DNA from: Harriotta raleighana
Lineage: Eukaryota
Direction of reading: 5' to 3'
NCBI GenBank assembly: GCA_050575255.1
Contig: JBNZDD010013718.1
Span: 8,683,677 to 8,747,676 of the forward strand
DNA length: 64,000 nucleotides
This document shows positions 6,671 to 46,091 of the stretch, piece after piece. Position 1 is the first letter of the stretch; the number at the start of each line of letters is the position of its first letter. A program made the translations under genes and the position numbers. The notes beneath the pieces were generated by a model that did no database searches, had not been told where the DNA came from, and was given only the letters and a program-made list of their open reading frames with translations.

Positions 6671-7405
6671 TAATCCTTGCATTTGAAATAGTGTCTTATC
6701 ATGTTGAGACGTCACAAACCACTTCACAAAGTGACTGTATATTATGTAGGCAAAACGCGACAGCCAGTTACGCACAGTAGTGTCCCACAAACAATCGTGG
6801 ATTGAATAATCAGATCAAATATATATATATATATATAGTTGAAGTGATTATTACCTCCAGAAACTAATCTACCAATCAACTAGCAACCGGGTTCTTACCT
6901 ACTGCTAGATAACAACAACAACAACAACAAGATTACATTTATAGAGCGCGTTTCACGTCAGGAGGACGTCCCAAGGCGCTGGACAGATGATTTAAGACCC
7001 GATCAGGGGGAAATGTTCGGGGCGAGGGGGGAGGGAGAGGGTGGGAGCAAGGAGGAGGTAGAGAGTCGAGAGGGGAGCTGAAGGCACGGTCGAAGAGAAA
7101 GGTCTTGAGACCGGCCTTGAAAGAGGAAAGGGAGGGAGCGAGGCGAAGGCACTGGGGGATGGAGTTCCAGAGCCTGGGGGCTGAGCAGCTGAAAGCCCGG
7201 CCGCCAATGGTAGGGCGGTTAGGGCAGGGGATGTGGAGCAGACCAGAGCCAGAGGAACGGAGGGTACGGGCAGGTAGATAGGATAAACAGACACATGTGG
7301 AATATGGAATCTTGCCTAAGGTGATTCCCCGGGTTTGATCCACTGCCTGAGAATTGAACCTGGTTTTTCGCTTGTGAGGTGAATGCTCTACCCAATACAC
7401 TATAC
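6671..7405 (-). mobile_element. Older SINE (body about 6671-6908, tRNA head about 7286-7405) interrupted by an L2 fragment
   Basis: Tail and body match the SINE family; a degenerate tRNA head follows the L2 piece. Confidence 0.75.
6910..7285 (-). mobile_element. 5'-truncated L2-clade LINE (ORF2 C-terminus + 3'UTR + (TTG)n tail)
   Basis: Translates as RTLRSSGSGLLHIP...GGRAFSCSAPRLWNSIP...LSSFKAGLKTFLFDRAFS, the typical L2 ORF2 end. Confidence 0.9.
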
Positions 7406-12440: not shown

Positions 12441-12975
12441 GATAATAATGTTCCTTGCATTCGATATAGAGCCTTATCGTGTCTTCGAGACGTCTCAAGG
12501 CGGTTCACAGAATATACTACAAAGTGAATTGATTGTATATTTTGTGGGTGAAATGCGGCAGCCAACTGCGCACAGCAATAATAATAATAATAATAATAAT
12601 AATCCTTGCATTTGATATAGCGCTTTTCACATCTTATCGACGTCCCAAAGTGCTTCACAGAATATACTGTAAAGTGAATTGACTGTATATTTGTGGGCGG
12701 AATGCGGCAGCCAATTGCGCACAGCAGCGTCCCACAAACAGTCATAGATTGAAATGACCAATTTTATTATTGTGTTTTTTTTGGAGGGATTATTATTAGG
12801 CATGTGGAGTAAGGAAACTTGCCCAAGGTTTCGCCCTGATCTGCCTGGATTCGAACACAGGTCTCATGCTTGTAAGACGAGTGCTCTAACCACTAAGCCA
12901 CAGGAGCTCCACGAATGTCCCACAAGCAGTCGTGGATTGAGTGACCAAATTATTATTGTTATTATTATTTTTGAT
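12441..12975 (-). mobile_element. Older SINE copy split by the younger SINE
   Basis: ...GCCAACTGCGCACAGC | AATGTCCCACAAGCAGTCGTGGATTGAG rejoins into the family body. Confidence 0.8.
12577..12912 (-). mobile_element. Young full-length tRNA-derived SINE nested in an older SINE
   Basis: Reverse complement of 1749-2090 with few differences; interrupts an older copy at 12441-12576 / 12914-12975. Confidence 0.92.
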
Positions 12976-14792: not shown

Positions 14793-15018
14793 TCAGACTG
14801 AAATAAACCACGAGGTCAGAGATATAAGTTCACAGCCATACTCGATTAGATCTAATCTGGAGAGTGCAAATGGCTTACTTCAGTGTCAGTCATTTCAGTG
14901 GTACCAATACCAGATCTATACCACTGGATACTAAATATAAAATACACCCCAATGCTCTCTCTATTGATTCATTACAACCGGAGGTGCGTAACTGAAAAAT
15001 GATCTGCTTATGTGAGCG

Positions 15019-15068
15019 CCTCCCGACATGAAAGGCGCTCTATAAATGTAATTTTGTTGTTGTTGTTG
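15019..15068 (+). mobile_element. 50-bp L2 3' tail inserted antisense in the PPIP5K1 last exon
   Basis: CCTCCCGACATGAAAGGCGCTCTATAAATGTAATTTTGTTGTTGTTGTTG, nearly identical to the L2 tails at about 38621-38665 and 54495-54545. Confidence 0.9.
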
Positions 15069-15692
15069 CTAGATCTCCACTAGGGCTTTCACTACTTATT
15101 AAACCTATCTGACCCTGTGGATCCTTACAAGTCTGGTCGAGTTGTTGATCTTGTGTAACTTGTTGCGTCTTGCTGTCATTAAGGCCTTGTGTTGGTTGAC
15201 TGTGGCTCAGGTGTTGGCTTTCAGTGGACTGTTGCTCCTGGCTGAGTCGATCACCTTGCTGATCTTTGTCACTCTGACTCGGAGCTACTGGTTGGCTCAG
15301 GCTGCCCTGCATACCATGTGATGGTTGGCTCTGGCTCAGAGTTACTGTATGTCTCCGGTTCTCCTGAGTATCAAGTGTTGGTTGGCTCAGGTTAGAAGTT
15401 ACTGCTTGCCCCTGGATGACCTGAGCACGGTGTTTAGGTTGGTTCAGGCTTGGAGTTACTGGTTGGCTCTGGATTCCTTGTGTGGTTTGGCTCTGGCTGC
15501 CCTGGATACTTGTTATTGATTGACTCATCTGTAGACTTGGAGTAATTTGCTGTCCACAACAGTGCTGCTGTTCTTCACTACTCTGCGATGTAAGTGATGA
15601 CTTCTCACTGAAGCTAAATCTCGGGGAATTATCAGACGTGTTGGGAGATGATGGGCCAGCACTTGACACGGTGCTTGAGGGACCACTGCTAT
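15040..15692 (-). CDS. PPIP5K1: PPIP5K1 terminal coding exon: YSSGPSSTVSSAGPSSP...Q/S-rich tail...GDLATTTTKLHL*
   Basis: atacag|AT AGC AGT GGT; open to TAG at 15040-15042 (ORF 15040..15669). Confidence 0.9.
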
Positions 15693-16265
15693 CTGTATTT
15701 TAGGATTCAAGAGATATAAATAAGTGAAAAGCAAATAGAGAAGGAAAGAACTAGTAAAAGCTACAATATTGCATCTGTCCATGTCCTGAAGTATCTATAC
15801 CTTAAACACAATTACTTTTTTTTGTAATTTTTGGACAGAAAATGCTTTGTTGATGATTTGCCCAATGCCCAATGTGCCTTAAACTCAAGATACAATACAA
15901 ATTACAAGATCAATGTGCCTACTTATCCAATACTGCCCTGAAATCAAATAAAGATGACTTTTCCATCGCATTTTAATGCTCTATCACAATATTCCACCTA
16001 AAATATGCCAAATTTTTCATTTAAAATAGTTTCCATACAAAGATGGCATTATACAAAGGGGACACAAATCTCAAATCTAATATTTTAGACATTTTAGTCA
16101 TCTCTTTGGGTACTGATGTCCCGATTCCCAATCCAGCCTTTTTGTATAATGAGTTCCAATTCCCCTATCCCCAAATCCAATTTTGATGTCCACACATTTG
16201 GTAGATGAAACCTGCAAGGACAGAATGATTTACACCAAAAGTGATTTTTAAAAAAGGTTACTCAC

Positions 16266-16394
16266 ACCATGCAGGTTTATCAGAACGAGGACGCAATGAC
16301 AAGGAGGCAACCGATGAGGACAGGACTTGCTGAGGTATGTAGGCATCAACCACAGGCTGGCTGCTTCCCATGGTCTCAAACATAGATGAAAGTG
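16266..16394 (-). CDS. PPIP5K1: PPIP5K1 exon, 129 nt: ALSSMFETMGSSQPVVDAYIPQQVLSSSVASLSLRPRSDKPAW
   Basis: ctacag|CA...T|gtgagt; phase 1-1. Confidence 0.9.
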
Positions 16395-45227: not shown

Positions 45228-46091
45228 CAGGCAGTCCTCAAGTTACGTCAGGTTCAGGTTCCTAAGATGTGGCGTAAGTCGAATTTGTATGTAAGTCGAG
45301 TCACCCCCCTATAATGCTTACAGTAACATACAGTGATTGGTTGTAGTATAGTGAGCTGCCCTCTCTCCCCTGCACCCCTCCTAATATATACAGTACTGTA
45401 AGTAAAATAAAATATTACTATACTTACATGGCTTCATTGTGAGTCTGGCGCTCGATGTAGCGCAACACAGGAGATCACATGCGACGTAGCGCAACACACG
45501 ACGTAGCGCAACACAGGAGATCACACGCAATGTAGCGCAACGCAGATCACATGCGACATAGCGCAACAACAACAACAACAACAAAATTACATTTATAGAG
45601 CGCGTTTCACGTCAGGAGGACGTCCCAAGGCGCTGGACAGATGATTTAAGACCCGAGCAGGGGGAAATGTTCGGGGCGAGGGGGGAGGGGGAGGGTGGGA
45701 GCAAGGAGGAGGTAAGTGGTCCCGTAAGTGTTGAGAGCGGCGACTCCAGTTTTCTATCGCGCGTGGGGCAACGCAGGAGATCACACGTGACGTAGCGCAG
45801 TCTAAAGGCTGGAGAGTACTGAACCGCCAAGCTCACAGACTCACACAGTACCTGTACAGTACACACTCGCGTCTCGCCTCCATCCTGTTCCTGTCCTGAA
45901 TGCGTATCGTGGTCCCGTAAGTGTTGAGAGCGGCGACTCGTTTTCTATCGCGCGTGGGGCAACTAAAGTATTTACATAGTAGTGTCGTAACTTCAAGACT
46001 TGGGATGTAACTCGGACGTAATTTTACTGATTTTAAATGTCGTAACTTCGAATTGTCGTACCTCGAAACGTCGGAACTAGAGGACTGCCTG
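45228..46091. mobile_element. Non-autonomous pogo/Tigger-like DNA transposon
   Basis: TA|CAGGCAGTCCTC ... GAGGACTGCCTG|TA terminal inverted repeats with TA TSD; subterminal CGTAA-like motifs; internal short tandem repeats. Confidence 0.88.
45563..45714 (-). mobile_element. Young L2 3' fragment nested in a Tigger-like MITE
   Basis: Almost identical to 6910-7060. Confidence 0.9.

Follow-up and report, generated by a model that had tools for sequence, protein, structure and literature searches.

An antisense LINE tail, probably from an L2 element, as the source of a predicted C-terminal end of PPIP5K1 in chimaeras, likely old and tolerated

How did the tail of a retrotransposon come to supply the end of a conserved protein, when did this happen, and did the new end matter to the host? 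These questions arise in the window (the whole 64,000-nucleotide stretch of DNA that we analyzed), where the last open frame of a PPIP5K1 orthologue extends on the minus strand from 15699 as far as a TAG (15040-15042), reading SGDLATTTTKLHL up to that stop. The end of this frame lies within a 5′-truncated LINE tail of 50 bp at 15019-15068 (plus strand), which finishes in (TTG)5 and is antisense to PPIP5K1. Direct translation of the minus strand gave eight element-derived codons, TTTTKLHL, at 15043-15066, followed by the element-derived TAG, which is the first in-frame stop of the last exon. The dinucleotide GC is common to both junctions, at 15018-15019 on the 5′ side of the element and at 15068-15069 on the side of its tail (both plus strand), so the boundaries of the insert are ambiguous by 1 nt either way; at the 5′ junction, the GC may represent either a 2-bp duplication or two 1-nt microhomologies. 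When compared with five other tails in the window, the insert was 90-94% identical over 50-52 nt, and at least 41 further places in the 1.10-Gb genome (G000) match it (40 scored of 197 candidates). A preliminary description of this locus had reported the 50-bp antisense insert with its TTTTKLHL and TAG end, the GC at both junctions, the repeated occurrence of the tail in the window, and the supply of the stop and last eight codons by a LINE tail, all of which are borne out by the window sequence, its translation, and the other window copies.

The identity of the host gene was assessed by comparison with Callorhinchus. The coding part of the last exon occupies 15040-15692 (minus strand) behind an acceptor AG at 15694-15693, and its best matches are the Callorhinchus PPIP5K proteins P0001-P0005 at 85% identity, over 204 aa in the case of P0004. 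This degree of identity suggests that the window species is a holocephalan other than Callorhinchus. Upstream, an exon chain obtained by tblastn with P0004 and P0159 extends over 16266-63867 (minus strand), with the Callorhinchus PPIP5K exons mapping in order from 63867 down to the last exon and the 5′ part of the gene lying beyond the window. Seventeen junctions, including that of the last intron (16265-15693), are GT-AG at >85% local identity; two further junctions scored lower and one was left unresolved. Since creatine kinase exons (PF00217) lie head-to-head with the gene at C13718:8782576-8785407 (plus strand), ∼35 kb beyond the window, and a separate PPIP5K paralogue is present on another contig (C13692) at 79%, the gene fits PPIP5K1, with the proviso that both "kinase 1" and "kinase 2" appear among the names given by the sources. 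We take the creatine kinase neighbor to be comparable to the human PPIP5K1-CKMT1 arrangement. The last exon matches no Pfam domain and is rich in Ser (20%), Gln (19%), and Thr (10%), a composition that appears in line with the disordered C-terminal region described for mammalian PPIP5K1, the human one of which binds the exocyst, in the portions available of two reports (PMC13573052, PMC13573144).

Several other features of this end of the gene were observed. Measured from its SSAGPSSP motif, the last exon of holocephalans (15043-15690 in the window) has roughly double the length of that of sharks and rays (216 vs 92-124 residues). Read-through of the last donor at 16258-16266 (minus strand) gives Cys-Glu-stop, and one Callorhinchus model in UniRef, P0151, ends KPAWCE; such an end would skip the last exon entirely. 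On the minus strand, the first AATAAA hexamers lie 1.7 kb (13359) and 2.3 kb (12768) beyond the stop, and the insert itself contains none.

To see what the insertion replaced, we followed the host sequence past the insert. The window bases align codon for codon to the Callorhinchus end up to a TAA at 14972-14974 (minus strand), which comes after codons matching the Callorhinchus HHQL and at which no difference is listed in runs X5, X6, and X11 from three other organisms, B, C, and D. This is the ancestral stop. The 14 codons that once closed the frame lie at 14975-15016 (minus strand), where they are now predicted to belong to the 3′ UTR, and align to Callorhinchus FTPADTFSVTHHQL. The preliminary description had instead regarded a TAA at 15008-15010 (minus strand) as the older stop, still intact. 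The Callorhinchus protein reads through this site, its C-terminal sequence being SGDPAFTPADTFSVTHHQL, and the FSVTHHQL end is present in 13 of the 15 members of five Callorhinchus clusters. Because organisms B, C, and D carry CAA there (15010 A>G), the TAA at 15008-15010 is a secondary stop that arose later in the window lineage. It reflects one of three window-lineage changes within the former 14 codons when compared with B, C, and D (15010, 14982, and 14979). With the letters of B, C, and D restored at these three positions, the former tail has no stop over its 14 codons and finishes in HHQL, a reconstruction to be read with the fact that differences within ∼31 letters of a record end are apparently unlisted and that the line for organism D is incomplete there. 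The insert thus did not land just ahead of the ancestral stop, as had been proposed, but 14 codons upstream of it.

The same comparison bears on the empty allele, which had been predicted to end DLALT. Part of that prediction holds, as removal of the insert does leave an in-frame TAA and organism D has an empty site, but the Callorhinchus protein ends FSVTHHQL. Among 120 listed homologues (isoforms counted separately), the most frequent C-terminal ends were the LVET of sharks (49) and the TAEP of teleosts (34), HHQL was found 5 times, and none of the 120 ended in ALT or LHL; orthologues lacking the insert were expected to end in ALT, and those listed do not. A near-length protein search returned 29 matches, none above 45% of the query and none providing a second chimaera C-terminus, and a cluster look-up returned only Callorhinchus records and one unrelated fragment.

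The age of the insertion was approached with contigs of four runs, from organisms A-D (X1, X5, X6, and X11, with one sample each of B and C), aligned to 14850-15300. The run of organism A gave no listed record across the site, and that of organism D is guessed to be RNA. Two gapless records represent organism C (record 24, 14850-15047; record 31, 15054-15300), and one record represents organism B (record 17, 14913-15047). The left-junction records of B and C therefore reach 29 letters into the insert and the right-hand record of C reaches 15. Each of these lengths is below the 31-letter bridging mark, and none of the B or C contigs extends across the entire insert. The right junction of B is outside the listed pieces. 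In C, the right-hand contig includes another 14 letters that cannot be placed on the window, and the tail in this organism likely differs by a longer TTG run. The matches of B and C start at the same base, and their two left-junction records contain 8 differing letters with 7 placed and 9 with 8 placed. Since this leaves at most one unplaced difference per record, the TAG is likely intact in both organisms. In the contig of organism D, on the other hand, 61 letters take the place of 99 window bases, equivalent to 50 fewer and 12 more. The 12 letters match a four-residue indel seen relative to Callorhinchus, and with the changes listed for D, the translation of 15115-15270 agrees with P0001 at 52 of 52 residues. 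By these alignments, organism D has an empty site without the 50-bp insert.

Because contigs of B and C cross the same junction into the insert and D is empty, the insertion would predate the split between the window species, B, and C and postdate their split from D (the Callorhinchus line). Distances from the window were 25/481 for B (5.2%, with some record overlap), 28/445 for C (6.3%), and 32/352 for D. Among the 36 listed sites, 9 distinguish the window from the other three organisms, 4 group B with C at positions with coverage of D, and 15 are particular to D. The divergence of Chimaera from Callorhinchus is put at ∼187 million years in the available text of PMC12952989, and scaling by distance places the younger bound for the insertion near 100 million years, a rough figure that assumes even rates and that the published date applies to the window species. 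The preliminary description had called the insert young and possibly polymorphic, citing its near-identity to other tails. The insert is common to two organisms diverged by 5-6% from the window and differs from the tail of a young copy (locus L032) at 3 of 38 positions. Eleven ungapped tails, taken from long copies that are mostly 76-85% alike in their bodies, differ from their majority at 0-6 of 38 positions (2 of 13 rows, out of register by an indel, were left out). Short tails thus look young even in old copies, which makes near-identity a weak argument about age. Two further markers for chimaera phylogeny were noted nearby: a 12-bp indel at 15114-15115, common to the window, B, and C vs Callorhinchus, and an 8-bp stretch near 14960 that is missing in the window lineage only.

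Which element provided the tail? The insert is 94% identical to the tail downstream of an 840-aa open frame in L032/L046, for which Pfam returned a reverse transcriptase domain (RVT_1) with an E value of 3e-36 in L046. RVT_1 was the sole Pfam match to the L046 frame, which begins at a stop and may lack its N-terminus (the APE endonuclease end). The same tail was found in 11 of 20 fetched RVT_1 loci, in two of which (L032 and L033) it lies directly 3′ of the reverse transcriptase frame on the same strand, and longer copies of the tail family have coding-like sequence upstream. The (TTG)n terminal repeat can be read directly in the tail, and the ORF2 end of the element presumably resembles those of fish L2s. 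We also considered the cTBR, a set of residues (P, W, E at +17, and W at +20) between EN and RT that is named for L2s in the text available of PMC4176376. In L032/L046, the sole copy covering this region, P, W, and E are in register and a Cys occupies +20, although a second PW-x15-E match in the same frame indicates that the pattern is loose. L2s have been reported from chondrichthyans, as far as the excerpt of PMC13343379 extends. Overall, the element can be placed as a reverse transcriptase-bearing LINE of the CR1 group, probably an L2; given that only 50 bp are present, the insert itself may have come from a partner SINE or a chimeric element carrying the same tail. A stem-loop was predicted for 45570-45645 with z = −0.81 and the other two folds gave z = 0.34 and 0.16, and thus none of the three RNA folds of the tail was better than those of shuffled sequences.

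Additional observations on repeats were made along the way. Two window copies of a young subfamily of this LINE, 6911-7060 and 45565-45714, are 98% alike over 150 nt, and since L032 and L033 also have long open reverse transcriptase frames, the family appears to have been active recently. At L004:1500-1570 (G000:C13715), a tail copy with an 11-bp gap has AGCG beside CCTCCC, like the left junction of the insert. The host flank at the insert resembles the element sequence 11 nt upstream of the truncation, a resemblance that may have aided 5′ joining. Loci L002 and L003 (G000:C13566, ∼6 kb apart) are identical over 3055 bp and are either a tandem duplication or an assembly duplicate. Another short repeat family has inverted copies at 1746-2090 and 12581-12915 (94.8% over 345 bp) and many older copies in the window.

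We consider it likely that the insert is an old, fixed antisense LINE tail, in turn likely from an L2, which was tolerated since only the tip of a predicted disordered tail changed. In such a scenario, target-primed reverse transcription would have started at the (TTG)n tail and stopped after ∼50 nt inside the stem-loop of the tail, with joining through a GC duplication of 2 bp or microhomologies of 1 nt. Being 50 nt long, the insert would have displaced the old tail from the reading frame, and its antisense TAG would stop translation within the last exon, where a stop is not expected to trigger nonsense-mediated decay. Drift would then have fixed the allele in the shared ancestor of the window species, B, and C, once the Callorhinchus line had split off, for a predicted net effect of 8 residues in place of 14. 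Once the 14 orphaned codons had become 3′ UTR, their decay would be expected, and the window lineage would have gained its three substitutions there, including the one that created the TAA at 15008-15010. That the rewrite was neutral or tolerated is probable, a judgment drawn from the absence of signal in very little data. Between the window and organism C, 7 of the 13 changes listed at 15088-15249 alter a residue, which suggests weak constraint on the exon, while the 6 that are silent suggest some constraint and count against neutrality. In the protein sequences compared, the low-complexity tail is already different between chimaeras, sharks, and bony fish, with ends that turn over.

Could the insertion nevertheless be recent and possibly polymorphic, placed just ahead of an ancestral DLALT end? 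Its high identity to other tails over 50 nt, the in-frame TAA at 15008-15010 that appears once it is removed, and its membership in a family with recently active copies would all fit. Yet junction-crossing contigs exist in two species diverged by 5-6%, B and C carry CAA where the TAA would have to be old while Callorhinchus reads on to HHQL, none of the listed homologues ends in ALT, and short tails look young in old copies as well. As the insert is common to B and C, this reading is refuted barring independent insertions at the same base, and we find it barely credible. An artifact of assembly, a pseudogene, or an unused exon is likewise very improbable. The UniRef model P0151, which ends before the last exon, would suit an exon that is not used, but 13 of 15 Callorhinchus cluster members use it, B and C show the same junction although their runs are independent, and the gene has open exons and GT-AG introns throughout as well as a paralogue at 79% that sits elsewhere, on C13692.

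We also weighed a minor GC-AG intron, through which the old and new ends would alternate. On the gene strand, 15069-15020 (minus) is a stretch of 50 nt that starts with GC and ends with AG and whose removal restores the empty allele, so its boundaries formally qualify, and in B and C the old 14-codon tail has no listed stop. Its donor scores −0.5, however, when the 17 donors of the gene score 2.5-7.6, and its acceptor −2.9 vs 2.4-15.3, with a G at −3 where all 17 have C or T; these matrices were built from the same 17 gene sites, which favors those sites. In addition, the shortest intron of the gene is 167 nt, and a nonsense change has broken the old tail in the window lineage, leaving such splicing a highly unlikely account. 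A further idea is that KLHL is a selected class II PDZ ligand that gave PPIP5K1 a new anchor in these chimaeras. As the preliminary description had noted, KLHL fits the C-terminal X-ϕ-X-ϕ pattern of class II, here as a predicted match to pattern only, whereas the ancestral HHQL fits none of classes I-III as these are defined in the accessible part of PMC7138185. The insertion also reached fixation in a conserved gene, and the 29 bases at 15040-15068 are unchanged relative to the youngest subfamily copy, with all 3 differences in the non-coding part. However, zero changes in 29 nt would occur with a chance of ∼0.28 at the local rate of the lineage (6/135), X-ϕ-X-ϕ is a loose pattern, and the LVET of sharks and TAEP of teleosts are not PDZ-like and imply no conserved partner. 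We therefore regard selection for PDZ binding as unlikely, and give equally little credence to the boldest form of the idea, in which an L2 tail gave an essential signaling enzyme a selected PDZ-binding end, kept in one chimaera clade for ∼100 million years and perhaps alternately spliced.

With an old and tolerated insertion as the preferred reading, the locus offers a neat illustration of how the tail of a retrotransposon can provide a conserved vertebrate enzyme with its stop codon and last residues, and the filled site, the empty site, and the decay of the orphaned codons are all visible together. As a presence/absence retroposon marker, the insert groups the window species with B and C against the Callorhinchus line. 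The tail is very abundant in chimaeras and contains a short antisense frame with a stop, so the same event may exist in other genes. For the case to gain in significance, the new end would have to bind a partner or be under selection. In the open literature searched, we found no report of the insert or of chimaera PPIP5K1.

The type of event is already known, since elements are common in last exons and new C-termini created by stop shifts have been described. Element-derived protein ends are known in mammals. Callorhinchus milii PPIP5K (P0001-P0005; XP_042198839.1 and isoforms) has the same exon chain and a last exon that is 85% identical up to SGD, but it lacks the insert, ends FTPADTFSVTHHQL, and has four extra residues upstream in the SLPD region. 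A survey of human and mouse counted 10,541 transposable elements in human last exons (PMC2394776), and as in the cases it covers, direct insertion here lengthened the last exon without forming a new one; in the text available, those insertions usually lie in the UTR, whereas this one interrupts the coding part and contributes the stop. The closest analogy in outcome is with stop-codon shifts (PMC4494051), where non-coding sequence also becomes the protein end after an indel displaces the frame of the old stop, and where outgroups are also required to separate the old stop from the new. Those described in the portion consulted are unfixed yeast alleles caused by point changes and small indels, in contrast to a LINE tail that is fixed across species and leaves the protein shorter. 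As for the element, the L2-clade elements ZfL2-1 and ZfL2-2 (PMC4176376, PMC4245944, PMC4760211, each as far as available) and the chondrichthyan L2s of PMC13343379 resemble it in having an ORF2 with a reverse transcriptase, truncation at the 5′ end, a 3′ tail that may form a stem-loop and closes with a short repeat, a target site altered over a short length, and, on the loose pattern noted above, Pro-Trp and Glu at the cTBR spacing. Two differences stand beside these likenesses: the last Trp of the L2 cTBR is Cys in the one copy that covers the region, and ZfL2-1 made duplications of ∼5 bp in DT40 cells, while the insert in PPIP5K1 is flanked by one of at most 2 bp.
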